Of a stretch of 64,000 nucleotides of DNA, positions 1-49,526 are shown in pieces. The translations under genes were made by a program, and so were the position numbers. Under the pieces are notes generated by a model that saw nothing but the letters and a program-made list of their open reading frames with translations, was not told where the DNA came from and ran no database searches. Source of the stretch: Candidatus Saccharimonadia bacterium (GTDB lineage Bacteria; Patescibacteriota; Saccharimonadia; Saccharimonadales; JALRHH01); assembly GCA_023253175.1 (NCBI GenBank), contig JALRHH010000002.1, forward strand, positions 64,199 to 128,198. Direction: 5' to 3'. Within the stretch, counting starts at the first letter, position 1. Every line of letters begins with the position of its first letter.

Positions 1-392
1 TAAATCATGTCTGATTTCTGTATCTTGTCGAGGTTATAAAATATGGCGCTACCAGAATATGTAAAACGGTGACCGGCCAGCACTGTGTTACCGCCGAGGT
101 CAGGCTCGCCAGTACCCGGTATATGCCAGGCACCTTTGTTTAGACTTGTAATATTACCGTCATGAATAATCGTACGGAGATCAATTTTTGGTATTACAAG
201 CGTATTTTCAGCTGGAATCGAGTCGGTTACCGGCAAGACGGTAGCCGATTTTGCGCCAACCACCGGCGCATCGTGCTTGACCCACCAGCTTACTCCAGGC
301 ATAAATGGCAGTACAAATATATACAGTGCAGCCAGGATAACAAGTATTCCTAAGATGTTGTTTATTCGCTTATGGGTAATCACGCCCTTCAT
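1..392 (-). CDS. Sortase family transpeptidase, N-terminal part (rest of the gene lies left of the window)
   Basis: Not in the ORF track because there is no stop in the window. Manual reverse translation from ATG (392-390) gives MKGVITHKRINNILGILVILAALYIFVLPF (TM anchor) ... TLVIPKIDLRTIIHDGNITSLNKGAWHIPGTGEPDLGGNTVLAGHRFTYSGSAIFYNLDKIQKSDMI, open to base 2. This is the sortase N-half layout including the catalytic His in LAGHR. Confidence 0.8.
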   Translation of the reverse strand, partial: MKGVITHKRINNILGILVILAALYIFVLPFMPGVSWWVKHDAPVVGAKSATVLPVTDSIPAENTLVIPKIDLRTIIHDGNITSLNKGAWHIPGTGEPDLGGNTVLAGHRFTYSGSAIFYNLDKIQKSDMI

Positions 393-603
393 ATCTACAT
401 TATGTCACAGATAGTTTGAGTAGTTTTGGATATAAAACATATTGCATAATGTTCAGTAAGGTTGGATAATGTGTTTAGAACAAACAGCACACAGACAAGC
501 GACTAGGGGGCGGAGTTAACTAATCCTGGCGATTGACTGGGGTGAATTCTCCTACCAAATGACCTATTCACTTGCCTCACATAATGTAGTGAAGGAGGTC
601 GTT

Positions 604-3600
604 ATGCAAAAGATTAGTTTTGCTAGACTAAAACAAAGACTTAGTAGCGGCGCTATTGCAATGTTATTTATTGCCGCGCAGGTAGCTGCAATTGCCGTAC
701 CATTTATTAACCCCGCTGTCGCTGAGGCGGCACCTGTTTGTGTTAATGACCAGCAGCAAGCAAATGACGAGCCAGGCCAGAAGGATCTTACCCGCTTCTG
801 TGAAGATGCTGGTAACGGTTCAATTAGCTGGAACTGGGACGAACTCTCTGTGAACGGCGCAAATACGCTGGACGGCTGTGCGCTCTTTGATACAGATGGC
901 GACGGATTTGTTAACAGGTCCTTGTGTGTCTCCACTACTGATGGAGTGGCCTTCACAAAAACTATTTACACCTGTAACGACTCGCGAGTTGATCGCTGTT
1001 CAGGTGCAAATACCGGTAATCCAGCCACCTCAAGCTGTAGCTTAGCTGTAACGGCTACCCAGCCATTTGCCGCAGGCTCAAATTCACCTAACGACCTAAC
1101 TGCAACTTGTTCACCGACTGCAGCCGATACTGCCGGAGGTGATCTTATTGATGTCTGTTCTTACCCATCCGGTCAGCCTAATTCAGACCCATCTGACTGT
1201 ATTGTGTATAAGAAAAGTACTGCAAAGATTGAAGTCCGTAAGGTTCTATCACCAACTACTGACCTCGGTCTTTTTGACCTAAAGATCAATGGCACCACCT
1301 ATGCAGACAATGTCGGTAATGGTGGCACGACCGGTGAAGTCGTCGTAGGTGCCGGTAGCGTGACCGTGCTAGAGGCCGAAAATGCCCCAACTGACCTCGC
1401 TGGCTACACCACCACATTGGTTTGCCGCACCCTCAATGGCACTAACCAGACTGCGCTGATTTCGACTTCCCCTACCGGGGCTGACACACGCCAGGGCAGC
1501 TTCACCGCTAATGACGGTGACGACATTGTTTGTATCTTCACCAACACCCTCCAGACTGGCAGCATTAAGGTCGTCAAAGACGTTATTAATGATAATGGCG
1601 GCACAAAGACATACGCTGACTTCCACTTTACGCTTGGCGGTAACCAATATTCATTCGACCCAACGACCTCCCCTGACGGCGAAAAGACCGTTACGTTGCC
1701 TGTCGGATCAGGACCATTTACGGTTACCGAACCAGAAGCCAACACAATGGGCTATGCAACAACTTACAGTAACTGTGCGAACCTAACCGTTGTAGCAGGC
1801 CAGACCCAGACCTGTACGATTACCAATAACGATGTAAGTCCAACACTAACACTCGTAAAGACCGTCGTTAACAACAATGGTGGCACGGCAACTTCGGCAA
1901 ACTTCCAGGGTAAAATTGATTCCAACGAAGTTGCGTGGAGTACTGCAGTTCCCCTCAGCGCCGGTGCACACACCGCCAGCGAAGCGGCTATCTTGCCAGG
2001 CGGTGCTGGATATAGTGCTGGCTCCTGGACCGGTGACTGTGCGGCAAATGGCAGTATTACCCTTAACCTTGGCCAAAATGCCACTTGCTACATCACTAAC
2101 GACGATGTTGCACCAAGCTTAACATTGAACAAAATTGTCTCGAATACTCACGGCGGCACAGCAAGTGCAATAGACTGGATGCTCACCGCGAATGGCCCCT
2201 CACCTCTTTCTGGTGCTGGTGCAGATGGCACTAACGATGTAGTAAGCGGTCCTAGCTTCCAGGCCGGTACGTATACTCTCAGTGAGAGCGGTGGCATTAG
2301 CGGATACTCAGCTAGTGACTGGAGCTGTACTAACGGCATCACAGTTACCAACAACCAAATCACCTTAAAGACAGGTGACACAACAACCTGTACGATCATC
2401 AATAGTGATATTGCACCGATCATCACGATCATTAAACAAGTGCTTAACCCATACGGATCTGCTCTCGCTGCGTCAGCCTTTCCACTATTTGTAGATGGCA
2501 ATAGCGTTACGAGCGGTCAAGCAAACACACAGTTTAACGCTGGTTCGCACATCGTTACCGAAACACAGCAAAATGGCTATGAGTTTACGAGCTTTACTGG
2601 CGACAACTGTAGCATCGTAGATGGCGTTTGGACCGCAGTTGGCTACATCGGCGGCACCACTACTTGTACCATTACAAACACCGCTATTCAGCCTAAGCTG
2701 ATCGTCAAAAAGCACGTCATCAACGACAATGGCGGCACTAAATCAGCTGACGACTTCCAAATGACCGTAAGTGGCACCAGCGTTAGTAGCACGCAATTTG
2801 CGGGCGACGAGGATGGCACAACCGTCTACCTAAGTGAAGGTACGTACAGTGTCGACGAGCTTGCCGACAATGGCTACGCAAAAACGCTCAGCAAGGATTG
2901 TAGTGGCAGCATAAAAATTGGCGAAACTAAGACCTGTACAATCACCAATGATGACAAAGCTGGCAAGCTAACGGTTAACAAGGTTGTTAAGGGCGGTGAT
3001 AGCGAAGCGGATGACTTTAGCTTCAAGATCGATGGCAGCGAAACAGAATACAACTTCGTAAACGGCCAAACTACCGACGAAGGTAGTGTCAGCATTGAAT
3101 TAGATGCAGGCACCTACTCTGCAACAGAAAACGAAGCATACGGCTACGACAAAGATGACAGTGAATGTAAAAATGTAGTTGTGAGCAATGGATCAGAAGC
3201 TAGCTGTACCATCACCAACACAGCTCAGCGCAAGATTACCATCTGTCACGCTACTGCGGCAGTCAAGAATCCATACAACACGATTTCCGTGCCAATATCT
3301 GCTGTTGACGGCGTTGCCGGCAACGAGGCCGGACAAGGCGACCACTACGGTGAGCACCAGGGTCCAATCTTTGATGCGAGTGTGAACCAGAACGGCGATA
3401 ACTGGGGAGACATTATCCCACCAGTACCTCCATACCACGAAGGCCTTAACTGGACCGAAGATGGCCAAGCAGCCTACGAGAACCACTGTACTCCTCCTGC
3501 TAAAGTTATCGTTACTAAGTACAACGACCTAAACCGTAACGGTGTACACGATGAAGATGAGCCACTACTTCCCGACTGGGAGTTCACCCTACAGGAAGAA

Positions 3601-4500
3601 TGTGAAGAGATAGAGCTTGGTGACTTCTTGGCACAGGCCCTAGTTCTTGATGGAGGATGTTACAACAAGACACAGACAACCCTTGAAGATGGCACCACCA
3701 CCTTTACCGGCGTTAAAACAGATCATGTCTACGAGCTATCCGAAACAATTCCAGAAAACAGCAACTGGCACCTCAGCAATATCACTTGTGATGATGAGGG
3801 CGAAGGACAAATTGGCCGTACCATTGACGATGAGTACTACCTCTATCCAGAGTTCCCAGGCGCAACCATCAACTGCGAAGTCGGAAACTACCGTGATGCA
3901 GTACTTGATATTACTAAGGTTAATAATCGACCAAACGCAACGGTTGTGGGTGACACTGTTACCTACACTCTAACCGTGAGCCTTCCACAAGAAAGTGGCA
4001 AGGTATTCGGCACAACCGTGACTGATCTTCCTCCGGAAGGATTCACCTACGTACCAGGCAGCTGGACCGCAGTATCCAACCTGCGTGGCAATATCAAAAA
4101 CATCGTTACAACAGAACCGACGTATGGCTCACCTGGCGTCTGGATACTTGGCGATATGCTTCCTGGTGAAGTTGTCACACTTACCTACCAAACACTAATC
4201 ACATCAGCTGTAAGTGATGGTACATACCCAGATATTGCATTCGCAGAGGGCTGCGATGTACCGATAGACGGAGAGACTGAATGCGGCGAAGGTGCAGTAT
4301 ATGCAAATGTTCGAACCTCAGATGATGATCCATTTGTAGGTACAACGGTAACCGTAGCTTCAGCTCCGCTAAAACCAGCCGTCATAACCCAGCTCGTGAA
4401 CACCGGTAGCAATACCCTGATTAATGCGCTCATAGCAATAACCCTCACAGGAGCGGCCTTTGTCACACTTGTCCGCCGCGAACAGAAAGGAGCAAAGTAA
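604..4500 (+). CDS. Giant sortase-anchored cell-surface protein (7 tandem Ig/Cna-B-like repeats, ICH..NPY module, SdrD-B-like and DUF11-like domains, LVNTG sorting signal)
   Basis: ORF 559-4500. GGAGG at 593-597 favours ATG 604 (MQKISFARLK.. plus hydrophobic signal). Repeats each end in xTCTITN. Further motifs are KITICHATAAVKNPYNTISV, DLNRNGVHDEDE (Ca-site-like) and LDITKVNN..VGDTVTYTLTV. The C-terminus has LVNTG (4393-4407), a hydrophobic helix and RREQKGAK. Confidence 0.85.
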   Translation: MQKISFARLKQRLSSGAIAMLFIAAQVAAIAVPFINPAVAEAAPVCVNDQQQANDEPGQKDLTRFCEDAGNGSISWNWDELSVNGANTLDGCALFDTDGDGFVNRSLCVSTTDGVAFTKTIYTCNDSRVDRCSGANTGNPATSSCSLAVTATQPFAAGSNSPNDLTATCSPTAADTAGGDLIDVCSYPSGQPNSDPSDCIVYKKSTAKIEVRKVLSPTTDLGLFDLKINGTTYADNVGNGGTTGEVVVGAGSVTVLEAENAPTDLAGYTTTLVCRTLNGTNQTALISTSPTGADTRQGSFTANDGDDIVCIFTNTLQTGSIKVVKDVINDNGGTKTYADFHFTLGGNQYSFDPTTSPDGEKTVTLPVGSGPFTVTEPEANTMGYATTYSNCANLTVVAGQTQTCTITNNDVSPTLTLVKTVVNNNGGTATSANFQGKIDSNEVAWSTAVPLSAGAHTASEAAILPGGAGYSAGSWTGDCAANGSITLNLGQNATCYITNDDVAPSLTLNKIVSNTHGGTASAIDWMLTANGPSPLSGAGADGTNDVVSGPSFQAGTYTLSESGGISGYSASDWSCTNGITVTNNQITLKTGDTTTCTIINSDIAPIITIIKQVLNPYGSALAASAFPLFVDGNSVTSGQANTQFNAGSHIVTETQQNGYEFTSFTGDNCSIVDGVWTAVGYIGGTTTCTITNTAIQPKLIVKKHVINDNGGTKSADDFQMTVSGTSVSSTQFAGDEDGTTVYLSEGTYSVDELADNGYAKTLSKDCSGSIKIGETKTCTITNDDKAGKLTVNKVVKGGDSEADDFSFKIDGSETEYNFVNGQTTDEGSVSIELDAGTYSATENEAYGYDKDDSECKNVVVSNGSEASCTITNTAQRKITICHATAAVKNPYNTISVPISAVDGVAGNEAGQGDHYGEHQGPIFDASVNQNGDNWGDIIPPVPPYHEGLNWTEDGQAAYENHCTPPAKVIVTKYNDLNRNGVHDEDEPLLPDWEFTLQEECEEIELGDFLAQALVLDGGCYNKTQTTLEDGTTTFTGVKTDHVYELSETIPENSNWHLSNITCDDEGEGQIGRTIDDEYYLYPEFPGATINCEVGNYRDAVLDITKVNNRPNATVVGDTVTYTLTVSLPQESGKVFGTTVTDLPPEGFTYVPGSWTAVSNLRGNIKNIVTTEPTYGSPGVWILGDMLPGEVVTLTYQTLITSAVSDGTYPDIAFAEGCDVPIDGETECGEGAVYANVRTSDDDPFVGTTVTVASAPLKPAVITQLVNTGSNTLINALIAITLTGAAFVTLVRREQKGAK
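1225..3222 (+). repeat. Seven tandem intragenic repeats of ~86-109 aa inside the surface protein
   Basis: Units start with a beta-strand like KIEVRKV / SIKVVKDVINDNGGTK / LTLVKTVVNNNGGTA / LTLNKIVSNTHGGTA / IITIIKQVLNPYGS / KLIVKKHVINDNGGTK / KLTVNKVVKGGDSE. Units end in CIFTNT / CTITNND / CYITNDD / CTIINSD / CTITNTA / CTITNDD / CTITNTA (aa 223-888 of the 559 frame). Confidence 0.85.
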
Positions 4501-9701: not shown

Positions 9702-11394
9702 CTAGCTCTTCTTTGAATTTCCCAAGACACCATATGCCACGATCAATATATTTTAGAGACTCTTCAGGCACCTTTTCGGGTTCTGCTAATTTTGCGCTTT
9801 GCTTAGCGATCACTGCATCAACACGGCCTTTAAGTGATGTGAATGCATCTCTTGTGTATGGACCGCCAGGGCCAAACCTATTCTCGAGAGTGCCGCTAAT
9901 GATATAGGCTAGTTTGTCCTGATCAGATAGGATGCTCCGTGCTCTCTCAAATGCTTCATATACCTCCACGTCAAATAAGTGCTTAAAGAATTCCTCTGCA
10001 AATTTAATTGCCGTAGCATGGCTTACAGACCAGCATGTGCCTATATAGATTGAAGCACCGCCAAAAATGAACCTTGCGCTAATGTCGGTCCATGATCCAC
10101 ATGCGTTAACAATAACCATAGGTCTGTAGCCAGAGGCCAGCCCGTGGAAGGCTCCTGCTGAGCCTGCTCCCGATCCAGATCCTAGAGTCAGCTCTCGTCT
10201 TTGCATATCTACAGTTCCGTTCGTTCTACTCGCAGTAGGCAACTTAGCCTCCGACAAAAGCTCCCAGGTCTTGCCTCTTACCTTTGAGTGCATTTCTGTC
10301 CATCCAGGACCGTCTGCTTTTTCGCCGTCCACTTCAATTATTTCGAAAACGCTATATGTAGTCTTATCCGCTGACTCATGTATAAGCACTTCGTGGGAAG
10401 TATCATCCACATTGATCTGGTATACGTTTTCCAATCCCTCGACTTGACCCCCGTGTGTGGCAACATAGAGCACATCATAAGGAATAGTTTCAAGCATTAG
10501 ATCATTAAGTGCAGCATTGTAGGTAGTCATCTTCCTGAAGATACCGCCTGTTTTTAGCAATGCTGCATCAGCCGCTTTGCGTTCTCTTTTAGTGTCAAAA
10601 TCCTTGTCGGTGTTTTGACAAAAAAGCCCAAAAACACCATCTCTTTTTCCTAACGCATAGTTTCCGTCATATATATTTCTGACTATTTGCTGACCAACAT
10701 TAACAATGTATGTATGAACTGCCGGCAGGTCTGGCATACATAGCCCAAGCGGAAGCTCATCGGTTATGTAGACTGCTTGCTCATAGTTATCCCATTTTAT
10801 ATCTGGCAGGAGTTCCCTAAGCATTTCTATCAGTGCATCAATGTCAATTTGCCTAATATCTGCATGGGGCGTACCCGAGATAGCATTTAGCTTTGCTATG
10901 GCTTTCTTCTTTATGTCACTAGGTACATCAATGAGAAAAAAGTCGGCATCATGCGCGATGGCGTAGTTTGCTGCAATGACTGACGTAGGGTCATCAGGAC
11001 GAAATTCGCATATAACCACTTTTTTTGTATTACCTTGGCCCCGCAAATTTCTATGAAGCTCTGGAGCTGCCAGCAAAGTAGGGGTTTGTGCCGGTATTTT
11101 AATCTCCGTGTACTGTCCCAAATCATCACTACTGCTTACATGTTGGAAAGGTATATCTATTATTTCTGCAATCTGCGAAGAAACCTCTTCACTCATGTCA
11201 CCATAAAGCACTAGTTTAGGCTGAAGGCTGTGTATGGCATTTGCAACGCGGATAACTTCGTTATCAGCATCAGGTCGCAGCATCCGAGGCCCTTCTAGTA
11301 CGGGAAAATAAGTACCAGTTTCCGCAAGACCGGATGAAATTGAGGCGGCTAGAGAAGGGTTATCTGTCACTAATACAATTTTGCTGAGCTTCAT
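9655..11394 (-). CDS. Cassette protein B: CHAT / caspase-like cysteine protease with unassigned N-terminal alpha/beta region
   Basis: 579 aa. YDVLYVATHGG (His314, nt 10453-10455), RPMVIVNACGSW (Cys432, nt 10099-10101), then GGASIYIGTCWSVSHATAIKFAEEFFKHLF..AFERARSIL, which matches the CHAT tail consensus as I recall it. Confidence 0.6.
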   Translation of the reverse strand: MKLSKIVLVTDNPSLAASISSGLAETGTYFPVLEGPRMLRPDADNEVIRVANAIHSLQPKLVLYGDMSEEVSSQIAEIIDIPFQHVSSSDDLGQYTEIKIPAQTPTLLAAPELHRNLRGQGNTKKVVICEFRPDDPTSVIAANYAIAHDADFFLIDVPSDIKKKAIAKLNAISGTPHADIRQIDIDALIEMLRELLPDIKWDNYEQAVYITDELPLGLCMPDLPAVHTYIVNVGQQIVRNIYDGNYALGKRDGVFGLFCQNTDKDFDTKRERKAADAALLKTGGIFRKMTTYNAALNDLMLETIPYDVLYVATHGGQVEGLENVYQINVDDTSHEVLIHESADKTTYSVFEIIEVDGEKADGPGWTEMHSKVRGKTWELLSEAKLPTASRTNGTVDMQRRELTLGSGSGAGSAGAFHGLASGYRPMVIVNACGSWTDISARFIFGGASIYIGTCWSVSHATAIKFAEEFFKHLFDVEVYEAFERARSILSDQDKLAYIISGTLENRFGPGGPYTRDAFTSLKGRVDAVIAKQSAKLAEPEKVPEESLKYIDRGIWCLGKFKEELDEVDQEVKNRKNGKS

Positions 11395-11404
11395 GTTATT
11401 AATC

Positions 11405-12403
11405 CTAGAAATCCATCTTAAAGGTAAAGTTTGAGGATGTGATATTGGAGATTGTCTTACTATGTACTTCTATGCCTTTAAGTTCAGGAAATATGAAAGA
11501 ACCGGTGATTTGATTTAGTAGGACGTAGCGACACATCTGCCTCAGTTGTTCGACGAGACTCTCGAGTGAATAGTTCTCAGTGCGGTATTCTTCAATTGCC
11601 CTTTTGGTCGTAAATTCCGTCACACCATCAGCCAATGAGCCTTGACCTATGATCAATGATGGCATCAATCCGTTATGAACGGTATGATTTCTAATTTCTC
11701 TACGAGCAACATCAAAAATAAGTCGATACTGCTTTCTAATAGCCTTATCCTTTATATTTCCAAAAATCAAATTCTTCCAGTCTTGATCCGCATCCCTAAG
11801 TGGGTGGTGAAGGCCCTTTTTACAGACCTCGCAAGTTCCTTTGCAGTATGTTGGCGGTGGGAGCAGAGCTTCCATCGCAGATATAAACATCACAACCTGC
11901 CAATAAGCGGGGTTTATGCTCCTCAGTCGCTTGTTGAAGTCAATATCTATTGCCAGGAGGTAATTTTTCAAAGACACTAGATATTTTTCACCTAAACTAA
12001 GGTAAGTATTATAAATGTCACCGTAATTAACTGTAGGCTCAGGCTCACTGCTTAAATAAACTGCGGGGAGTACGTCATCCGGCTCAAAATTGATTTCGCG
12101 AGGTGTGACTTTAGGGTATTTTTTTGGGTCAAAATCCAATGTATTGAAATCACTAGCTTCATGACCGAATGCTTGGAAGGAGTAAACTGGAAGGCAGCTT
12201 TCAGCAAGTAGTGAGTGGAAATATATCCACTTTCCAATCTTTCCGCTTGAGTCTAGCGACTCTACCTCTATGGATCCACAAAAATGTTCCCTATTCCAGT
12301 CGTCAGAAACCGTAACAGGACTCCCCGGTTTAAGTAGCAGTCCTTCCAGTTGAATTGGCCGCACGGGAACTATGTAGCTAGGAATTTTTCTAACATTACT
12401 CAT
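11405..12403 (-). CDS. Cassette protein A: unknown N-terminal domain plus HEPN-like C-terminal module (RNxxxH) with Cys/His knuckle
   Basis: 332 aa. AAGGAG RBS sits 2 nt upstream of the ATG. AYWQVVMFISAMEALL ... CKGTCEVCKKGLHH ... ARREIRNHTVHNG (RNHTVH at nt 11675-11692). Confidence 0.5.
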   Translation of the reverse strand: MSNVRKIPSYIVPVRPIQLEGLLLKPGSPVTVSDDWNREHFCGSIEVESLDSSGKIGKWIYFHSLLAESCLPVYSFQAFGHEASDFNTLDFDPKKYPKVTPREINFEPDDVLPAVYLSSEPEPTVNYGDIYNTYLSLGEKYLVSLKNYLLAIDIDFNKRLRSINPAYWQVVMFISAMEALLPPPTYCKGTCEVCKKGLHHPLRDADQDWKNLIFGNIKDKAIRKQYRLIFDVARREIRNHTVHNGLMPSLIIGQGSLADGVTEFTTKRAIEEYRTENYSLESLVEQLRQMCRYVLLNQITGSFIFPELKGIEVHSKTISNITSSNFTFKMDF

Positions 12404-12413
12404 AACTCCTTAA

Positions 12414-12887
12414 AGTGTACTGCTTTTACGAAAGGGGTTCTATATTTATACTATCTATAAAGCTTATGGCAAGACCTACCGTAATGACTGGAAGGTCGCC
12501 TTCCCCGAGGGAAAAGCCGTCGTGGAAGTAAAGGGTGTCGGAAAGAGCGCCGCTGAGAAGCATGCTGCCCAACTTGAGAAGTGGGTGGCTTCGGAAATGG
12601 AAGAATCTGGCGAGGCCCCAAAGGGAATCCTAGTCGTAAACACGTGGAGAGAAACCGCACTGGATGAGCGGCCCGCCGAAGACTTTCCGGATCAGATGCT
12701 GAAGTACTCCAAGAGTCGCGGACACTGTCTAGTGTCAGGATTGCAGCTATTTGTAATCCGAGAGGAGGTGGAAGCTAATCCCAACCGCGCTGAGTTCTGG
12801 CGTAAGAAGATCATGAAGACCTCTGGCGTGCTTGCCGGCGCGACGGATTGGCCAAAGTATCTACTCAGAGTTCAGGCAGCCGAGTAG
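12414..12887 (+). pseudogene. 5'-truncated remnant of a PD-(D/E)xK (Mrr/restriction-endonuclease-like) nuclease gene
   Basis: The frame is open from 12414 with no ATG; the ORF track starts at GTG 12522. It reads ..YRNDWKVAFPEGKAVVEVKGVGKSAAEKHAAQLEKWV.., which is D-x12-E-V-K followed by a Q-containing helix. GC is 34/60 at 12541-12600, higher than the flanks. Confidence 0.45.
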
Positions 12888-39879: not shown

Positions 39880-40605
39880 CTAGCCTAGCAGTTCTTCTGG
39901 AATATCGAAATTTACGTGGGTGTTGGTTACGTCATCGACTTCGTCAAGGGCATCCATCATACGCATGATTTTTCCAGCAGTAGCTTCGTCAGTAACCTCA
40001 ATTGTGTTATTTGGAATATATGTCAGTTCTGCTTCGATAATCTCTATACCAGCTTCGCGGAGTGCATCACGAACCTTTGCGAGCTCTTTTGGATCGGTGT
40101 AAATCAGTGACTCGCCATCGTCTTCTTGCACATCATCTGCGCCTGCATCAAGCGCCTGCAACATGATCTCGTCACCCACGCCCTTTACACGGATTTCGCC
40201 TTTGTGCGAAAACTGAAATGCCACAGAGCCCTTGTCCGCCATTGTGCCGCCGTGTTTCGTAACAGCCAAACGGACTTCCGGGAATGTGCGGTTTACATTG
40301 TCAGTCGCCGCTTCGATAATAATTGCAGTTCCACCTGGACCGTAGGCTTCGTACAGCAATTCCTGGAGTGCCGCAGCGTTCTTGTCCTTAACACGATCAA
40401 TTGCCCGGTTAATGTTGTTAGCCGGCATGTTGGCGGCCTTTGCCTTATCAATTGCAAGACGCAGCGCAAAGTTCGTATCAGGATCCGTACCGCTCCGCGC
40501 AGCAAGCGCAATTGCGTTACCTAACTTTGTGAAAACTACACCGCGCTTGGCGTCTTCGATTGCCTTACCGCGGTGAATTTTTGCCCATTTTGAATGTCCG
40601 GCCAC
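39880..40605 (-). CDS. yebC: YebC/PmpR family DNA-binding regulator
   Basis: 241 aa. MAGHSKWAKIHRGKA start. Confidence 0.9.
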   Translation of the reverse strand: MAGHSKWAKIHRGKAIEDAKRGVVFTKLGNAIALAARSGTDPDTNFALRLAIDKAKAANMPANNINRAIDRVKDKNAAALQELLYEAYGPGGTAIIIEAATDNVNRTFPEVRLAVTKHGGTMADKGSVAFQFSHKGEIRVKGVGDEIMLQALDAGADDVQEDDGESLIYTDPKELAKVRDALREAGIEIIEAELTYIPNNTIEVTDEATAGKIMRMMDALDEVDDVTNTHVNFDIPEELLG

Positions 40606-40681
40606 TACTAAACTCCGTATTATATATCGTATTTCTTATCTGTTATTGTAACAGAATGATCTACTAGCTTAAAGTATCCGG

Positions 40682-41128
40682 CTACCTGGACGGCTGGACG
40701 GCACGCTCAACATATTCAACCGCACGGCCAAGTGATTCAAGCGTGTACACCTCGGTAGATGCGACGACCGGCTCCCCGCTACCATCAGGCGACGGCATCC
40801 ATACCTGTATTTCAGATACACCTCCATCACTACTAATATCGATAGCTGCGAAGTATCGCGGTTCGTCCTCCATTGGCATAAAGTAATCAATATGCGCCGA
40901 AAATTCTGATGTATCGGCTGCATTCCGCCTGAGCCACATCGGTCTAATACTCTTACCATCCTCAAGCGCATCTTCAGCAGACTCCACCCACTGCTCACAT
41001 ATTTCCTGAAAATATGTGTCATAGTCCCTCGGTATATGTACGTGCAGTTCAGCAAACCGCCCTGCACGATCTATATCCGGACTTGATACTTCCTGATTCT
41101 CTGGCTGAGCCGCCTGATTTTCCGCCAT
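40682..41128 (-). CDS. Hypothetical acidic protein
   Basis: 148 aa. AAGGAG RBS 7 nt upstream. Preferred over the alternative-frame ORF 40669-41067, which is R/C/L-rich. Confidence 0.5.
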   Translation of the reverse strand: MAENQAAQPENQEVSSPDIDRAGRFAELHVHIPRDYDTYFQEICEQWVESAEDALEDGKSIRPMWLRRNAADTSEFSAHIDYFMPMEDEPRYFAAIDISSDGGVSEIQVWMPSPDGSGEPVVASTEVYTLESLGRAVEYVERAVQPSR

Positions 41129-41320
41129 AACATAACTCCTTAAACTACTTATCTATCCGTTATTATAGCGCATCTTTTATCACAAAGTTGACAATAGTAC
41201 CCTTTCTATACATAGTACTTTTCATGAACACTGAAGGAGCTCAAGAACCCGGTCTACCCAGTGGCAATATCTAAAACCCTAATGCTTGCACTGCTATAGT
41301 CATAGGACTATTATTGCTCA

Positions 41321-41653: not shown

Positions 41654-41945
41654 TATGGATGCTCACGGAGTAGAACAACAATACGGTGAAAAATTTGAGA
41701 AAACAATGCGCGAAAAAAAGTTTTTCAATGGCATGTTCAAAGGTATGGCCGGTATTTCAGTTGCAGCAGGAAGCGTAAACGCGCTTATCCTCGAAGACGA
41801 TCGTCTGACATATGTTTGCGGACCCTACCTCGGGGCAGCTGTCATGCTTCTTGCAAGCGAAGCAATGAACTACGTTTACGACAGACTACAAGACAATGTT
41901 ATACAACTCGGGACTCATAGCTTCCACGAAGAACACCCAGAGTAA
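41643..41945 (+). CDS. Hypothetical membrane protein
   Basis: 100 aa with two hydrophobic segments. Overlaps the upstream ORF by 11 nt. Confidence 0.4.
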   Translation: MLSNMDAHGVEQQYGEKFEKTMREKKFFNGMFKGMAGISVAAGSVNALILEDDRLTYVCGPYLGAAVMLLASEAMNYVYDRLQDNVIQLGTHSFHEEHPE

Positions 41946-43493
41946 TCACCTCCTAGCGCCAATCCTGCTCAACAAAGATCTAGTAAACAGTGTGATATCT
42001 TGGCGCCATTCGTAGACCGCATAGCCGATTACTGCAACCAGTACAACAGCTGCAATTATCCATTTTTTAGACGACTCTTTTATTGGAGACTGGACATCAG
42101 TCACGGCCGCAAGAGTATTTGGCGAAGCAGATGAGACCTTGCGGCAGCGATTTGTTTCAGGGTTTCTTTCCTGATTCTCGCCGCATGCTGCAAGTGCCTG
42201 GCTCGCAGCGGCAATACGCCTGCAACGATTAGTAAGAATATTACGCTCCTCCCCTGGCTCACAAGACACTAATGTTGCGGCAGCAGTTGTAATAATAGAA
42301 CGACAACGGTTCGTGGCCGGATTACGCTCTTTGCCCTCCTCGCAGGCCGCAAGCTCGCTCACCGCGTCCTCTATTGATCGGCACCTATTGGTCTCCGGGT
42401 TTCGGTATTTACCCGCAGGGCATACTGCAGGAGTTGATACAATCTCTGGTTCATTAGTAATAATTGGAAAGTTATTTGCATCAATCGGACTCGGTATTGC
42501 CCATGTCCAAATTCCAGTCTGGTCATTCAGGGCCCAGGACTGATCAACATACTTCTCGCTGCCTGCATCCGCATATGAAATAAGTGTGTTTCCATAGCGA
42601 GTTACACCAAATATGTCCTCCAACCAAACATATCCTCCGCTGTTTGTAAGTGATAGCACGTCTCCGTCATCCCTCAGATTAAGAAGTAAGTAGTTATCAT
42701 GAACTGTGGCATTCAATAATGAGAAAGTATTAGTAACTGATTCACTGGTTCCCGTGCGCACACGATACCTTCCAATATCAGATGCATCAAACCCGGCCTT
42801 CATCCTGAGCTTTATGTAGTCACTGCATGTCGGCGATGCCTCAAAAGGCGAACAACTTTTTGAACGTGCTAAAACCTCAACTATTTCAACAAGCGGCTCA
42901 GGCGGTACGTCATACAAATGGTCCGCCTCTATGGACCCAGTTGACAGTGGAGTGTTCAGTGCAGAGACAGCGGTACTATAACCAGTAGTCGTGCGGCTCC
43001 GTTTATATACGACGTCGTCAGTCTTCAGGTCAGTCGGTATGGTCACCGTCAAGAAATTAGGGGATTCAATCCATAGCGTTTTTGGCTCCCAGCCGGAAGG
43101 CGCAAAACGAAACGAAACCCTGTTATTGGAAGTCAACACATCGACGGCAGCAGCCAATATATGACTGTTTGGCAACATGCGGCCGCTCAGCGGTATTGAC
43201 TCAGTGATAGCTGGATTACTCTTGCGTGAGTAGCGAAGCTGCATACCATCCAACGTCAATAGATCATCACTTCCGTTGTATAACTGCACAAGATTCAGAC
43301 CATCTGATGCAGCCTGATAGGCAGTAATCATAAGAGCCGAGGAAGGCGAGACCGGGCTGGTAGGCACAGGCGTAAGCTCAGCACTCACTTGCTCCAGTGG
43401 AGCAAGTGAAAGTATCACCAAAACTACAGCTGCTATATAATTAACCACCCTAAGCATTACCGAAATAGTACACGTGCTGCTAGGAACTGTCAA
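41946..43493 (-). CDS. Secreted lamin-tail-domain (LTD)-like protein with four Cys-bracketed repeats and C-terminal TM anchor
   Basis: 515 aa (alternative start ATG 43457). LMITAYQAASDGLNLVQLYNGSDDLLTLDGMQLRY resembles the LTD consensus. Four C-x2-G-x2-RN-x2-TNRCR repeats; TM WIIAAVVLVAVIGYAVY. Confidence 0.6.
   Translation of the reverse strand: MTVPSSTCTISVMLRVVNYIAAVVLVILSLAPLEQVSAELTPVPTSPVSPSSALMITAYQAASDGLNLVQLYNGSDDLLTLDGMQLRYSRKSNPAITESIPLSGRMLPNSHILAAAVDVLTSNNRVSFRFAPSGWEPKTLWIESPNFLTVTIPTDLKTDDVVYKRSRTTTGYSTAVSALNTPLSTGSIEADHLYDVPPEPLVEIVEVLARSKSCSPFEASPTCSDYIKLRMKAGFDASDIGRYRVRTGTSESVTNTFSLLNATVHDNYLLLNLRDDGDVLSLTNSGGYVWLEDIFGVTRYGNTLISYADAGSEKYVDQSWALNDQTGIWTWAIPSPIDANNFPIITNEPEIVSTPAVCPAGKYRNPETNRCRSIEDAVSELAACEEGKERNPATNRCRSIITTAAATLVSCEPGEERNILTNRCRRIAAASQALAACGENQERNPETNRCRKVSSASPNTLAAVTDVQSPIKESSKKWIIAAVVLVAVIGYAVYEWRQDITLFTRSLLSRIGARR
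42138..42422 (-). repeat. Four tandem ~24-aa repeats C-x2-G-x-x-RN-x-x-TNRCR-x
   Basis: CPAGKYRNPETNRCRSI / CEEGKERNPATNRCRSI / CEPGEERNILTNRCRRI / CGENQERNPETNRCRKV (aa 358-452). Confidence 0.85.
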
Positions 43494-44959
43494 AAATCTC
43501 TTTGCAGATTGCTGTTCTTGCGGAAGCTATGACCCGTAACCTTCCATAAATATATCATCAAGAACATGATTGCCGTGTATGCAGCAGCTACTACCTGCCA
43601 GCCTATCTCAAGCTCCTTTTTCGCCCCAGGAGCAGTCGCAAGCCAATCAATAACCAGCTTCATGTACTCAAGGATTGCATCAAGAGGTAACCCTATTAGA
43701 AATGCGAGAGACGGCATCACGACTCCAATAATACCAGCGGCAAATGTCAACAACATAGTCAGTGGGACCAGAGGAACAACGAGAATATTTGCCAGCAACG
43801 CATAGGGTGAATAATAACCGAAGGCCGCAACGACAATCGGTAGTGTCGTGACTTGAGCTGCAATTGTTGCAATCAGCACTTCCCTAAATATTCCTGGACT
43901 CTTGTCTGCACCCCAAAAATAATGATGCAGTAGTGGAGCCAGAATGATCACTCCTGCAAATGCCGCAAACGAGAGATACCATCCCACATCACCCCATATA
44001 TATGATGGATTATAGAGTACCGTAATTGCCGCCACGAATGGCAGTAGCACCATAGGATGAACTACCCTTCCGTAATACCAAGCCAAGAGACTAATCCCTG
44101 ATACAAGTCCCGCCCTAGTCATCGACGGACTGAATCCCGTAACAAGTAAAAAACCACCAATCATTCCAAATGACATGACAGCTGTTAAATACTTTGAAAC
44201 TTTAATAAATAGTCGTCGGACCGCGCCTACTAAAATAGTCAGATGTGCACCGCTTGCAACAACTGCATGAATAAGACCGATCGTCTTCAGCTGGTCGTTG
44301 AGTGTTTCTGGTGTAGTTAACTTCTGTCCTACCAAATAAGCCAATGCAAACTGTGCATCTTCACCAGGAACAGCCTTTTCAACCCCACCAGCAAACCAAT
44401 CACGTGCCTCCCTGCCAATATCACCATGGCTTGGATATGTAATGCCTAGAATCTTCGCCCGAAACATACTTGCTGGCATCGTACCAAATCCTTCTAGCAA
44501 AGAACCACGAACCGTAACCAAATCGCCTCTCTTCATAACGCCGGTATCCGATGTTGACACCCACACTACCCCAGGTAAGTGTTGCCCCTTAATACTTACA
44601 TCACCGATACGAAGGCGTACATCTCCTTTCTTGCCAAATGAGACGTCTTCAACAACCCTACCCGTAAGTACAACCTCTTTACCATAGTATTTCTGATAAT
44701 CCTGAAGATGTACATACTCTGAACTCCCCCTATAAAGACCAAGTAGCATACCTGCCACCAAAGCGAATACAAATAAATAGCGATACTTGTGCAATAAAGA
44801 GCTTAGGGACAAAGACAAGGCAACTATGAGCCACAAATAGGAGTCGAATCCGCTACTAATCGTTGCTGCGAAAGAACCAGCCAGCACCCCGATGCTAATC
44901 CACATGAAAAACCAGGAGGCGTGCATTCGTCCCCCGAGCCACCTCAATACAAATCTCAT
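43490..44959 (-). CDS. comEC: ComEC/Rec2 family DNA internalisation channel (competence domain only)
   Basis: 489 aa, polytopic. OB-like N region (VVLTGRVVEDV..), LIHAVVASGAHLTIL-type competence motif. Confidence 0.75.
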   Translation of the reverse strand: MRFVLRWLGGRMHASWFFMWISIGVLAGSFAATISSGFDSYLWLIVALSLSLSSLLHKYRYLFVFALVAGMLLGLYRGSSEYVHLQDYQKYYGKEVVLTGRVVEDVSFGKKGDVRLRIGDVSIKGQHLPGVVWVSTSDTGVMKRGDLVTVRGSLLEGFGTMPASMFRAKILGITYPSHGDIGREARDWFAGGVEKAVPGEDAQFALAYLVGQKLTTPETLNDQLKTIGLIHAVVASGAHLTILVGAVRRLFIKVSKYLTAVMSFGMIGGFLLVTGFSPSMTRAGLVSGISLLAWYYGRVVHPMVLLPFVAAITVLYNPSYIWGDVGWYLSFAAFAGVIILAPLLHHYFWGADKSPGIFREVLIATIAAQVTTLPIVVAAFGYYSPYALLANILVVPLVPLTMLLTFAAGIIGVVMPSLAFLIGLPLDAILEYMKLVIDWLATAPGAKKELEIGWQVVAAAYTAIMFLMIYLWKVTGHSFRKNSNLQRDF

Positions 44960-44960
44960 A

Positions 44961-45680
44961 TTAGTTACCTACAATCGGTAATACTTGGTCAGGGCAAGCA
45001 GACAAGATAGATCTCATCGCACGCCCCTCAGCATCCGCGAGCCATAATGAATATTTAATTTTGACGGCAATTTGGCGGGCGACGTAGCGGCAACGGTACT
45101 CTTTGTTTGGTGGCAGCCACGTTGCGGCATCCCCATCACCTTTATCATTATTTGTCGGGCCATCTACGGCCAATAGATTCAGTGGATCGTTATAAAACTG
45201 ATTACGTAATTCTGGCGTTAACTGCTGGGCACCCTTTTGCCAGGCATCTGACACTGCGACTACGTGATCAATCTGCACTGCTTGGCTGGTATTAATCCCC
45301 CGCTGGAAATCAATTACCTTACCAGAATACGGATCTGGATCGAGCCGACCAGTCAGCACGCGGCAGCCGTCTTCATCCAATTTTGTATCTTTTAAATCAC
45401 GCAGTAAAATAAGCTCACGTACGCTGCAGTTATCAATTTCTCCCCAGCCATTACTGAACTTGCTCCGGTCATAGCCAGTTTTTGGCGCCCTACCCTTAAC
45501 CTCTAATTTTTCCAGTGCCTGCAGTGCATTTTCGGATGGCGGCTGTTCAGCTTTTGAAACCACACCCAGCGTTTGGGGCTGCTCCGTAGGACGTTCCTGA
45601 ATTGCCTCGTATAACAGCCCTGAAAGTAGCGATACGATCACGAAAATAGCTGCAGACAATCGCCGCTTACGCTCACGCAC
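44961..45680 (-). CDS. Secreted DUF1524 / His-Me finger (HNH-like) nuclease
   Basis: 239 aa. N-terminal TM/signal, VQIDHVVAVSDAWQKGA ... NLLAVDGPTNNDKGDGDAATWLP. Confidence 0.65.
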   Translation of the reverse strand: MRERKRRLSAAIFVIVSLLSGLLYEAIQERPTEQPQTLGVVSKAEQPPSENALQALEKLEVKGRAPKTGYDRSKFSNGWGEIDNCSVRELILLRDLKDTKLDEDGCRVLTGRLDPDPYSGKVIDFQRGINTSQAVQIDHVVAVSDAWQKGAQQLTPELRNQFYNDPLNLLAVDGPTNNDKGDGDAATWLPPNKEYRCRYVARQIAVKIKYSLWLADAEGRAMRSILSACPDQVLPIVGN

Positions 45681-45855
45681 CTAGAATATCCCCATATTTC
45701 ATTACAATGCATTATAACTGCATACGCTTGTTGGCTCTACGTAATATTCACCAGGTGAACAGTATGTACAGACAATAAGTAGTTGTGTTGCCGGGCGCGT
45801 CAGAGGTTGGCTGTTAGGCCAAACAATGACGCACCCGGCGACTTCACAACTGGTT

Positions 45856-46608
45856 CTACTCCAGACCGACGTATTCCGCGAAGAACACGTGGTTATCAGT
45901 CTGTTGACCTCCATCCTCACGCAAGTTGCACGTGATGAAGACGAGACGATCGGGGATCTTCCTCCACACTCTGGCTACGCTGGGGAGCGTTTCCTGTGGA
46001 GTCTTGAGACTATCCTTCACCCTGTAGTGCAACCGGACGCCGAGCGCCAGAGAAGCCTCCGTGGTGAGGTAGATGTCATCCCCATCTTGAAGTTGTTGAT
46101 CAAGCACATCGAACGCTGCAAGGCAGCCGGGCTTCCTGCAGGTGTGGCCTGCGAAGTAGGAAGACCTCGATGTGTTTGAACCTGGACGCGTCCCTCGAGA
46201 CGTGTCGAAGTAGATCGTGTCGGCAGCCGTTGCCGGGTCGAAGGGCGGATCGATGATATCACCGAAGTAGTCGTCCTCAACCCGAACCTGGAAACCGATA
46301 CGCGGTACCTCGACTCGAATTGGCCGAGAGATCTCAACCTGTACTGGTTGTACAGGAGCTGTCTCTTCGGGCATGAAGGGACCATATACTGCCGGAGGCA
46401 GTACAGGTGGCCGAGGGAAGAAGTCACCTTGCGCTGACGGAAGATCCGTCTTCGGAGCACCGAGCTTACCGGTTGTGGCCAGAGGCACACTCGCAGTCAG
46501 CAGGGTTGCTACGAACGCAAGGAGGGCGCACGTGCACCAGAACTTCATCCATCGACCAGCAGTTGAACTGCCGGGTTTTGGTGCCCGGTGCCGTGCGCCG
46601 CGGACCAC
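45856..46608 (-). CDS. Class F sortase (intact His and Cys), high-GC
   Basis: 250 aa (GTG start; alternative ATG 46548 MKFWCTCALLAFVATLL TM). VEVPRIGFQVRV, YFAGHT, DGDDIYLT, RLVFITCN. Confidence 0.75.
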   Translation of the reverse strand: MVRGARHRAPKPGSSTAGRWMKFWCTCALLAFVATLLTASVPLATTGKLGAPKTDLPSAQGDFFPRPPVLPPAVYGPFMPEETAPVQPVQVEISRPIRVEVPRIGFQVRVEDDYFGDIIDPPFDPATAADTIYFDTSRGTRPGSNTSRSSYFAGHTCRKPGCLAAFDVLDQQLQDGDDIYLTTEASLALGVRLHYRVKDSLKTPQETLPSVARVWRKIPDRLVFITCNLREDGGQQTDNHVFFAEYVGLE

Positions 46609-46633
46609 TGTGTTCCCTCAGGTCATGAGGTTG

Positions 46634-47737
46634 TCAGCGGCCGGTGTGCGCGATGGCCGGGGTCTCCATGCCGGAGTCCTGGTCGTCGACACCGCCACCG
46701 TTGCCGCCGTTGTTGCCGCCACCGTTGCCGTTGCTGCAGGGCTTGATCGTGACGCGCTCCGACCCGACGTTCTCGCCGTTGACGAAGAGGTCCACGACGT
46801 ACTCGCCGGCCTTGACCTTGTGGGTCCCGGGCTTGACGAGCTCGTCGTTCAGCGTGACCGTCGCCGTGGCGTTGGCCGGGCTGAAGGTCGGCGTACCGAT
46901 CGTGATCGACTCGCAGTCGGGGTCCACGTCGACGGAGCCGGCGACGCCGATCTCACCGTCGTCGCACAGCTTGCCGCTGTCCACCGGCGCCGGGTAGGTG
47001 TACGTCTCCTGGTTGTCCGGGAACACGTAGCCCTCGTTGGCCGTCAGCGTGATGCTGCCGTCGGGGTTGCGGTCCACGGAGTAGTTGCCGCTGGGGACGT
47101 TGCCGTAGGCCGCGTTGTCGGGGCCGCAGGGGTCGTTGACCGGAACGGTGGGGGCCGTGATCTCGGTCGGGTCGCAGGGCTCGTTGAAGTCCGGAGCGAT
47201 CCCGAAGTTGATCTCGGTGGTGCCGTCGTCGAACGTGACGCCGTCCTCGACGAGCGGCTTCTTGATCTCGACCTTGAGCGACCGCGCGTCGGGACTGATG
47301 GTCCAGTCGAGCGTGTTGGTGTCGTCCGGCAAGACCCAGGTGTTGTTGTCCGGACCGCAGACCGTCAGGTAGACCGCCTCCGGCCGCTCGATCTGCTCGG
47401 GCGGGTTGTCACCACCGGGGCAGTCGCTGCGGCTGGGCTGCGCGATCTCGCCGACGTAGCCGAGAACGTACGAACGGTCGTGGGCGTCGTTGAAGTAGCC
47501 CGGAACCGTGCCGTCCCACTGGTTCTGGTCGATCGAGCTGGTGGCAACCTCGATGGGGTTCTTGCCGGCCTTGAGGCGCTCGTCGACACCGGGCTGTCCG
47601 ACGTACTTGCAGACGTAGACCTTGTCGGTCGCCGCAGAAGCCGGGCTGGTCATCACGGACACGCCCGTCGACAGTGACGCGGCGGCCAGTACGACCGTGG
47701 TGCCGGGCACCAAGATCCGCTTGTTGAGAGAAAACAT
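46634..47737 (-). CDS. Secreted actinobacterial-type surface protein ending in AIAHTGR
   Basis: 367 aa. Signal peptide ..VMTSPASA, KVYVCKYVGQPGVDERLKAGKNPIEV module, Cys pairs, GNGGGNNGGNGGG tract. The C-terminus is AIAHTGR then stop, with no hydrophobic tail. Confidence 0.75.
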   Translation of the reverse strand: MFSLNKRILVPGTTVVLAAASLSTGVSVMTSPASAATDKVYVCKYVGQPGVDERLKAGKNPIEVATSSIDQNQWDGTVPGYFNDAHDRSYVLGYVGEIAQPSRSDCPGGDNPPEQIERPEAVYLTVCGPDNNTWVLPDDTNTLDWTISPDARSLKVEIKKPLVEDGVTFDDGTTEINFGIAPDFNEPCDPTEITAPTVPVNDPCGPDNAAYGNVPSGNYSVDRNPDGSITLTANEGYVFPDNQETYTYPAPVDSGKLCDDGEIGVAGSVDVDPDCESITIGTPTFSPANATATVTLNDELVKPGTHKVKAGEYVVDLFVNGENVGSERVTIKPCSNGNGGGNNGGNGGGVDDQDSGMETPAIAHTGR

Positions 47738-47923
47738 CTCTCTGTCCTTTCCTTGGGAGTTGAACCGAATTGTGAAGTTACGCGCTTATGCGGGCACGAA
47801 ACCACTCATATCAGCTCATTCGGGGGGACCGAATACGTATAGTTTAACATGTTTTGCATATTTTGTAAATAACTACACCTCTTTCAGGTACTTGATGGAG
47901 AATTCTGGTATTATGAGTGGTAA

Positions 47924-49450: not shown

Positions 49451-49526
49451 TGGAGGGCTCACCGGGGCTCGAACCCGGGACACGAGGCTTAAAAGGCCTC
49501 TGCTCTACCAACTGAGCTATGAGCCC
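49451..49526 (-). tRNA. tRNA-Lys (TTT)
   Basis: Acceptor GGGCTCA/TGAGCCC, D arm GCTC-AGTTGGTA-GAGC, anticodon arm GAGGC-CTTTTAA-GCCTC, T arm CCGGG-TTCGAGC-CCCGG, encoded CCA. Confidence 0.9.

Follow-up and report, generated by a model that had tools for sequence, protein, structure and literature searches.

The locus described here raises the question of how a sharply bounded pair of genes, rich in guanine and cytosine (GC), came to lie in the genome of a Saccharimonadales bacterium, and what the pair does there. Saccharibacteria live as epibionts attached to Actinomycetota, and little is known of the way in which they recognise their hosts and hold on to them. The window, that is, the whole stretch of 64,000 nucleotides (nt) that was analysed (positions 64,199 to 128,198 of contig JALRHH010000002.1, assembly GCA_023253175.1, Candidatus Saccharimonadia bacterium), contains a minus-strand segment of about 2.1 kb, called the unit below, with a surface-protein gene and a sortase gene. 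An earlier note on this DNA had taken the segment for a recent transfer from host to epibiont or, failing that, for an assembly or binning chimera. We consider it likely, for the explanation taken as a whole, that the segment is a self-contained operon made of a promoter, a leader, the surface gene, its dedicated sortase gene and a terminator hairpin, and that the unit is a stable, inherited component of a Saccharimonadales clade, neither an artefact nor a fresh insertion.

Composition and inheritance of the unit

The GC content of the 2-kb segment at 45.79-47.74 kb is 0.626, about nine standard deviations away from all other 2-kb windows of the 64 kb (0.465 +/- 0.018, maximum 0.503). In 300-nt windows it climbs from 0.48 to 0.56-0.69 at about 45.85-47.75 kb and then returns to 0.41-0.48, and GC stays at or below 0.511 in all the remaining 1-kb bins. 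The high-GC island reported earlier was recovered, with exact counts at 45721-45780 (24/60) and 45781-45840 (37/60) and small corrections at 46681-46740 (42/60, not 45/60) and 47821-47880 (22/60, not 23/60). The jump at 45781 is the terminator hairpin, the edge of the unit. Both of the co-oriented genes, 25 nt apart, were found on the minus strand, and the features of the segment are the following.

47841-47869, minus strand: sigma-70-type promoter from a consensus scan, TTTACA-17-TAAACT with a TG extended -10
47738-47840, minus strand: 5' leader (about 100 nt), predicted to form a hairpin and conserved in five lineages
46634-47737, minus strand: surface-protein gene, 367 amino acids (aa), from its open reading frame (ORF) and homologues; signal peptide 1-35, KVYVCKYVG module, three further small beta-sandwich domains, disordered G/N-rich linker, C-terminal IAHTG plus Arg
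46637-46654, minus strand: truncated sorting signal I-A-H-T-G-R (IAHTG at residues 362-366), with the stop codon next to it at 46634-46636
Between the two genes, minus strand: spacer of 25 nt separating two ORFs in different frames
45856-46608, minus strand: sortase gene, 250 aa, from fold search and family alignment
45781-45851, minus strand: GC-rich terminator hairpin (core 45790-45839), directly 3' of the sortase stop codon
46373-47677, plus strand: antisense ORF of 434 aa, not a gene (codon-aligned antisense frame with GC by position inverted)

Most of the compositional anomaly is synonymous, and it is gene-specific, its strong part being confined to the surface gene, with the sortase gene moderately raised. 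GC at the first, second and third codon positions (GC1/2/3) is 0.60/0.47/0.935 in the surface gene and 0.63/0.49/0.61 in the sortase gene, against a background GC3 of 0.462 +/- 0.047 (49 ORFs). Values of 0.87-1.0 are held from the signal peptide through the stop codon of the surface gene, after which GC3 steps down to 0.4-0.77 in the sortase gene. Codon choice in the surface gene is all-or-none, with AAG for Lys (13/0), GAG for Glu (20/0), AAC for Asn (26/0) and GAC for Asp (34/0), and 4 of its 368 codons end in A; GAA is favoured by native chaperone-like genes (10/51). The codon-usage comparison that had been proposed gave textbook high-GC actinobacterial usage, indistinguishable from that of the Nocardioides homologues (GC3 0.88-0.97). 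This signature extends across lineages, with a surface-gene GC3 of 0.90 in L005, 0.87 in L086, 0.86 in L004, 0.83 in L088 and 0.80 in L008 (labels of the type L001 denote loci or contigs of relatives, those of the type P0003 homologous proteins). The step at the stop codon is present in five lineages, and the gap between the two genes amounts to 0.2-0.35 in every lineage, the sortase gene ranging from 0.53 to 0.72.

Judged by its RuvB, which is 85-86% identical to proteins named Candidatus Saccharimonadales, the organism is a member of the Saccharimonadales, in agreement with the Saccharibacteria-like identity suggested before. Both junctions of the unit recur at 100% identity in contigs of three runs (L001-L003, from SRR14560398, SRR14560443 and SRR14560396), and four diverged relatives, L086, L004, L005 and L088, carry the unit as well. 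In L086 and L004 it stands, as in the window, between the 245-aa membrane-protein and PAP2 genes and the GmrSD_C, ComEC and lamin-tail-domain (LTD) genes, with sortases 87% and 60% identical to that of the window, respectively. L005 shares the upstream side only (PAP2 and membrane-protein genes), and L088 has different neighbours, with a histidine kinase gene upstream. The check for absence from sister genomes (or for presence at other sites only) therefore spoke against a recent insertion, as the unit occupies the same site in L086 and L004.

Housekeeping proteins of the window and L004 are 83-95% identical. In pairwise comparisons of the window with L004 or L005, four-fold degenerate sites of the flanks are 0.29-0.46 identical and synonymous divergence (dS, computed by NG86) is not computable, which corresponds to synonymous saturation. 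Against L086, dS reaches 1.3-2.0 in the flanks, compared with 0.24 in the sortase gene and 0.49 in the surface gene, where the nonsynonymous divergence (dN) is 0.27. Since dS in the unit is below that of the flanks, the unit has been exchanged between lineages more recently than the time at which the flanks diverged. Taken together, these divergences indicate that the unit is old at the locus, or at least common to deeply diverged lineages.

Sliding nucleotide identity between the window and L086 is 0.84-0.95 over the sortase gene and hairpin and about 0.90 over the leader, against 0.65-0.83 in the flanks, and it breaks into mosaic patches of 0.61-0.91 over the surface gene, for which dN/dS is about 0.5-0.9. 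The surface gene thus appears hypervariable and mosaic, and the leader on one side and the sortase gene plus hairpin on the other could act as recombination arms. With divergence between lineages lower in the unit than in its flanks, the unit behaves as a recombining allele cassette. Patches at 0.87-0.97 identity to L086 were also seen at 40500-41200 and 41700-41900 of the window, and from their sequence they suggest widespread mosaic recombination between the two lineages. Polarising the synonymous changes with outgroups was rejected as uninformative, given that the outgroups are about 90% G/C at these sites and saturated.

The regulatory sequences are of native-type composition, with an AT-rich promoter, and promoter, leader and hairpin are kept in all the loci that cover them; both promoter hexamers are retained in the window, L086, L004, L005 and L088, the last with its different upstream gene. 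The leader, single-copy within the window, contains the blocks GTGGTTTCGT.CCCGCA and AACTTCACAATT, invariant in five lineages with synonymous saturation of their coding DNA. Its predicted hairpin shows one compensatory pair, no Rfam family matches it, and a leader-pattern scan of Joint Genome Institute (JGI) metagenome contigs found nothing; the leader may be a regulatory RNA. The terminator hairpin has a free energy (dG) of -43.2 kcal/mol (z -6.1) and is absent from the consensus-scan calls, having no clear T-run. Loop included, it is nearly invariant in the window, L086, L004 and L005, better conserved than the genes preceding it, and homology between the window and L005 stops right after it. 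The hairpin might therefore be more than a terminator, for instance a recombination or uptake-related site. The only Rfam match on the unit, a spurious sub-threshold microRNA one, falls at this hairpin.

The 434-aa antisense frame, pointed out earlier as a shadow ORF, is present, and the idea that it is an overlapping gene in its own right was rejected: GC by codon position runs inverted in it, its position 1 being sense position 3 (GC 0.935), and homologues, a signal peptide and a confidently modelled fold belong to the sense frame. The antisense frame is open because its stop codons mirror the sense codons TTA, CTA and TCA, which are absent at GC3 0.93. Public gene calls nevertheless picked such a shadow ORF of 350-360 aa, on the strand opposite to the sortase, in L001 (8872-9924), L002 (8872-9924) and L086 (1366-2448). 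The exact 367-aa protein is on record from one 2.4-kb contig only, and the real surface protein is effectively absent from the public annotations of the L001, L002 and L086 genomes.

The surface protein and its sortase

As the earlier note stated, the protein encoded at 46634-47737 carries a signal peptide, which is of the Sec type, together with KVYVCKYVGQPGVDERLKAGKNPIEV and a G/N tract. An AlphaFold2 (AF2) model with a predicted local distance difference test (pLDDT) score of 80 shows four small beta-sandwich domains followed by the disordered linker. A fold search with it returned weak, generic Ig-like array matches only (template modelling (TM) score < 0.25), and no Pfam, NCBIfam or PDB sequence match was found. 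Homologues annotated as LPXTG cell-wall-anchored proteins occur in Nocardioides and other Actinomycetota, in Saccharibacteria and in some Chloroflexota. The window protein shares the N-terminal module and repeated DPCGxxNA domains with the KVYVCKYVG-module LPXTG proteins of Nocardioides/Actinomycetota and Saccharibacteria (e.g. P0033 of Nocardioides sp. BYT-33-1), and high GC3 with the actinobacterial ones among them. Those proteins, however, are 450-700 aa long, have complete sorting signals and an overall identity of only 30-43%, and the window protein has a C-terminal beta-sandwich domain that is specific to its clade, as are its signal peptide and its truncated motif.

The C-terminus ends in a pentapeptide of the LPXTG type with no hydrophobic segment and no charged tail behind it: G-R is followed by the stop codon, and the next ORF lies 25 nt downstream in another frame. 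The five closest homologues (44-67% identical) all end in [P/N][A/T][I/V/Y]-A-[H/N]-T-G-[R/H]-stop, and this ending is conserved though the linker before it varies among them. Distant homologues carry the classical tripartite signal, as do the partners of the basal sortases in L007 (TPTYANTG, transmembrane segment, RPRRGSHQ...), L008 (KLADTS, transmembrane segment, RRSRARHGDKA) and L019 (P0028; SAHTG, transmembrane segment, RRGQEN). Considering that these proteins retain motif, membrane segment and basic tail, the truncation is derived. The preservation of the motif beside a varying linker argues, on comparative grounds, that the sortase still reads the motif of an anchor-less substrate. LAXTG substrates are known from class E systems, e.g. 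the Streptomyces chaplins. Like the LPXTG and LAXTG substrates of classes A and E, the window protein combines a signal peptide, a wall-spanning low-complexity linker and a C-terminal xAxTG; unlike them, it is without the hydrophobic segment and basic tail and stops one residue past the Gly. We know of no characterised sortase substrate with such a TG-plus-one-residue ending, although our search was not exhaustive.

The sortase has a basic N-terminus, one transmembrane helix, a Pro-rich linker and a catalytic domain with the motifs YFAGHT and LVFITC. Twelve relatives were found among 5.8 billion proteins, and nine (E<=1e-30) in a second search of 1.84 billion representatives; the family is found in Saccharimonadales contigs. 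Pattern scans for the family gave no relative in 185,579 species genomes and nothing in JGI metagenome contigs. An AlphaFold model built from the family (core pLDDT 88-95) displays the eight-stranded sortase beta-barrel, and the best 50 Foldseek matches in the PDB are all sortases, of classes A, C, D and E (probability 1.0, E ~1e-8, TM-target 0.51-0.73). H155 (YFAGHT) and C227 (FITC) are invariant across 41 relatives.

The description of this protein as an intact class F sortase stands in part. A sortase it is by fold, with class F the nearest class, but the wording was too strong for a sequence that finds no match in Pfam even at E<=10, in NCBIfam or against PDB sequences. The NCBIfam model NF033748 (class_F_sortase, curated cut-off 166 bits) is the best class for 5 of the 12 close members (best E 1.2e-7) and for 30 of the 41 wider relatives (best 3e-19). 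The cut-off is not reached, the window copy giving no match and the close clade staying far below it. The homologues P0003-7 and P0012 carry a weak precomputed PF04203 match. On its modelled fold the protein is a divergent class-F-like sortase and, by the curated threshold, not a class F one. TAL-effector and mucin matches were set aside as low-complexity noise, and the idea that His240 replaces the catalytic (beta8) Arg was withdrawn, because in the wider alignment this column is variable in class-F-like sortases.

The prototype of class F is SrtF of Cutibacterium/Propionibacterium acnes (Di Girolamo et al., 2019, as cited in PMC13251363 and PMC8225981). Class F sortases are mainly actinobacterial, with physiological roles that are largely unknown. 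The window sortase resembles class F in its N-terminal transmembrane anchor, its beta-barrel and the His and Cys of its GHT and TC motifs; it differs in being paired with a motif that is LAxTG-like ([IVY]A[HN]TG) rather than LPXTG, and in the tiny size of its family. Another sortase, native in composition, is cut off by the start of the window (3-404, minus strand, ...GNTVLAGHRFTY) and has weak matches to several classes. Divergent from it lies the gene of a 1313-aa protein (559-4500, plus strand, GC3 0.47) that ends in LVNTG, a transmembrane segment and RREQKGAK. Sortase anchoring would thus be native to the organism, and the high-GC unit an additional, dedicated system.

In the mechanism that we propose, the 367-aa protein would be exported via Sec and its signal peptide cut after ASA, and the four modelled beta-sandwich domains would make up a short stalk or an adhesin. 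From the pairing of the genes and the conservation of the motif, the membrane-anchored sortase would recognise the C-terminal [I/V/Y]-A-[H/N]-T-G, cut after the Thr and then attach the protein to the wall of the cell or some other amine acceptor. With the membrane anchor and charged tail lost in the clade, a Gly-Arg or Gly-His dipeptide alone would be released. The fast-evolving mosaic surface gene, set between a conserved leader and the sortase gene plus hairpin, may represent a recombining allele cassette in competent bacteria.

A dedicated sortase with its substrate is a known kind of function. What is new is the TG-plus-one-residue ending; the gene-confined, clade-wide actinobacterial codon signature in an epibiont, reaching into the wider Saccharimonadales family; the cassette architecture, with a conserved leader and a sortase gene plus hairpin around a mosaic gene; and the conserved, uncharacterised leader itself. 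No description of the locus or of these elements was found in the literature on Saccharibacteria sortases and on horizontal gene transfer with a GC anomaly. The unit provides a candidate attachment protein with its own sortase, fast-evolving and exchanged between lineages. A conserved truncated sorting signal could widen the range of accepted sortase substrates, and it gives a class-F-like sortase a testable function.

Origin of the third-position signature

The secreted protein had been described as actinobacterial-type, and the codon usage and database matches of its gene are in agreement with this. That class F sortases are chiefly actinobacterial also speaks for such a link. The best full-length matches outside the clade are from Nocardioides (Root682, LC069 and CPCC 206347, 40-43% identity), the best actinobacterial match being 43% identical in aa over 228 residues. 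The domain at residues 190-258 is 68% identical in aa and 75-79% in nt to Nocardioides genes (79% nt over 158 nt), and is as near to Nocardioides as to the clade members other than L086. Most likely, the actinobacterial codon usage reflects an actinobacterial (Nocardioidaceae-like) ancestry of the surface-protein lineage, and the signature is either older than the diversification of the clade or renewed again and again.

The other explanations differ in how they account for abruptness and age. An assembly or binning chimera, for which only the abrupt change of composition speaks, is refuted: both junctions are reproduced in the contigs of the three runs, homologous junctions exist in four other samples, both edges coincide with promoter and terminator, and a chimera would need systematic mis-assembly in seven independent data sets. 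A scenario in which both genes passed as one block from a high-GC actinobacterial host to the epibiont, in one recent event, would fit the GC3 of 0.935, the codon usage shared with Nocardioides homologues, the rank of Nocardioides among the matches outside the clade and the identity of the organism as a member of the Saccharimonadales. We nevertheless find it very improbable, given that lineages with saturated dS in the flanks have the unit in the same place, that its native-type promoter and leader are conserved, that the sortase gene reaches a GC3 of only 0.61 and so differs from its partner, that the nearest actinobacterial protein is 43% identical, that close relatives all sit in low-GC contexts, and that the pattern scan of species genomes found no relative of the sortase family. 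The comparison with genomic islands points the same way. The unit resembles them in its sharp compositional boundaries, its atypical GC, GC3 and codon usage and a history discordant with that of its flanks, but it occurs in all sampled relatives, has native regulatory sequences, and its anomaly ends at the boundaries of coding sequences (CDS). No integrase, transposase or other mobility gene and no flanking direct repeats were found at the unit, in line with the earlier note, and no transfer RNA (tRNA) junction either; the repeats are chance matches of 12-21 nt, and tRNA-Lys(UUU) lies at 49451-49526, 1.6 kb off and past two genes.

The contrast in GC3 within one operon, across saturated lineages, calls for either re-seeding from high-GC DNA or a gene-specific force on synonymous sites. 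According to the former, GC3 would be kept high by repeated import or gene conversion, via competence, from actinobacterial hosts or a high-GC3 allele pool, with recombination between the conserved leader and the sortase gene. The mosaic identity profile, a unit younger than its flanks, the nearness of domain 190-258 to Nocardioides, the conserved bracketing sequences, the presence of ComEC and nuclease genes and the GC3-rich homologues in many other Saccharimonadales are all consistent with it. We still judge it unlikely, since no stretch longer than 100 nt is more than 80% identical in nt to any actinobacterial locus, since signal peptide, C-terminal domain and truncated motif are peculiar to the clade, and since the tree of the N-terminal module is Saccharibacteria-specific. 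The latter dispenses with an actinobacterial origin and has a force within the Saccharimonadales, be it selection that acts on synonymous sites or on the mRNA, or a recombination hot spot with GC-biased gene conversion, drive GC3 to near 0.9 and hold it there. It would explain an anomaly confined to the CDS with its step at the stop codon in five lineages, the intermediate sortase gene, the occurrence of the same feature in Microsaccharimonas homologues at another conserved locus, and a module tree that joins high-GC3 and native-GC3 Saccharibacterial genes. However, GAG, AAG and CAG usage runs opposite to the preference of the native chaperone-like genes and a tRNA-Lys(UUU) is present, which makes native translational selection improbable; the actinobacterial homologues show exactly this codon pattern; and the effects reported for GC-biased conversion in bacteria are of a few percent, not 45 points. 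This explanation appears rather unlikely to us.

An inherited operon whose surface gene has actinobacterial ancestry remains our preferred explanation, and several observations weigh against parts of it. No high-GC donor was found, nor any relative in a high-GC context, among the 5.8 billion proteins or the 185,579 species genomes, every close relative being embedded in low-GC DNA. In a low-resolution neighbour-joining tree the N-terminal module (72 aa) groups with Saccharibacteria and not with Nocardioides, in a cluster that includes L012, of native composition (GC3 0.38) and with its own adjacent sortase. One transfer followed by neutral amelioration cannot yield a GC3 of about 0.9 beside a partner at 0.53-0.72. 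The age estimates for the surface gene are rough, since two-state codon usage compresses its dS in distant pairs (0.56-0.79), values that do not denote young age. On the side of function, the catalytic Arg of the sortase could not be placed (R230 is invariant in the close clade only, R221 is found in 33 of 41 relatives, and position 240 is His here), its lack of database matches has been given above, and efficient in vivo processing of an anchor-less substrate is not known to us.

A GC3 of about 0.9 in one gene of a 47% GC genome, across saturated lineages, contradicts simple amelioration and makes host-to-epibiont gene flow, or selection on synonymous sites, directly testable at this locus. 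A bolder idea, which we regard as doubtful, is that Saccharimonadales keep a hypervariable, sortase-displayed surface protein in a "host dialect", either rebuilt from host high-GC DNA via competence or selected to be host-like. Jointly with it, and with the same reserve, the TG-plus-one ending might reflect a new sortase handling of an untethered substrate, for example its ligation to the host or self wall at attachment. If the former were true, the presence of the same GC3-rich family at conserved Microsaccharimonas loci would make it a general feature of the interaction between epibiont and host.

Neighbouring genes and related loci

The adjacency to DNA-uptake genes that had drawn attention is real, in that the unit is followed directly, on its downstream side, by a GmrSD_C nuclease-like gene and ComEC. 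It is not essential, since the surface gene and sortase gene occur as a pair in other contexts in L005, L088, L008 and L019. The downstream genes form a trio (41946-45680, minus strand) that encodes a membrane-anchored GmrSD_C (DUF1524/HNH-type) protein, a ComEC limited to the competence domain, and a protein of 515 aa that has a weak lamin-tail-domain match, Cys-rich repeats and a C-terminal transmembrane segment. The trio adjoins the unit in the window, L086 and L004. It is plausibly a DNA-uptake module whose presence does not depend on the cassette.

Homologues of the surface gene with GC3 of 0.73-0.85 were found in the Microsaccharimonas representatives L016 (296-2863), L024 (5653-7431), L025 (5710-7791) and L075 (5536-8289), at a locus conserved between species and different from that of the window. 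In L024, L025 and L075 it is preceded by a GreA-like gene and a P-type ATPase gene, and a DEAD-box helicase gene lies downstream of it in L016, L024 and L025. High-GC3 homologues are also present in L017, L019, L051 and L060, and all of these genes, those of Microsaccharimonas included, stand out as discrete GC islands (GC3 0.73-0.86 vs a locus GC of about 0.5). Other Saccharibacteria (L010, L011, L034, L045 and L081) have homologues of native composition. An adjacent class-F-like sortase follows the homologue in L024 and L019, and L019 contains a second gene with GC3 0.82 (11288-12721, plus strand) about 3 kb from its first GC3-rich surface gene. Three module-bearing contigs with GC of 0.38-0.53 are filed under unrelated taxa, namely L012 (DATMTU010000006.1, Dongiaceae), L026 (Gammaproteobacteria) and L031 (Methanoperedens), and are probably mis-binned Patescibacteria contigs.

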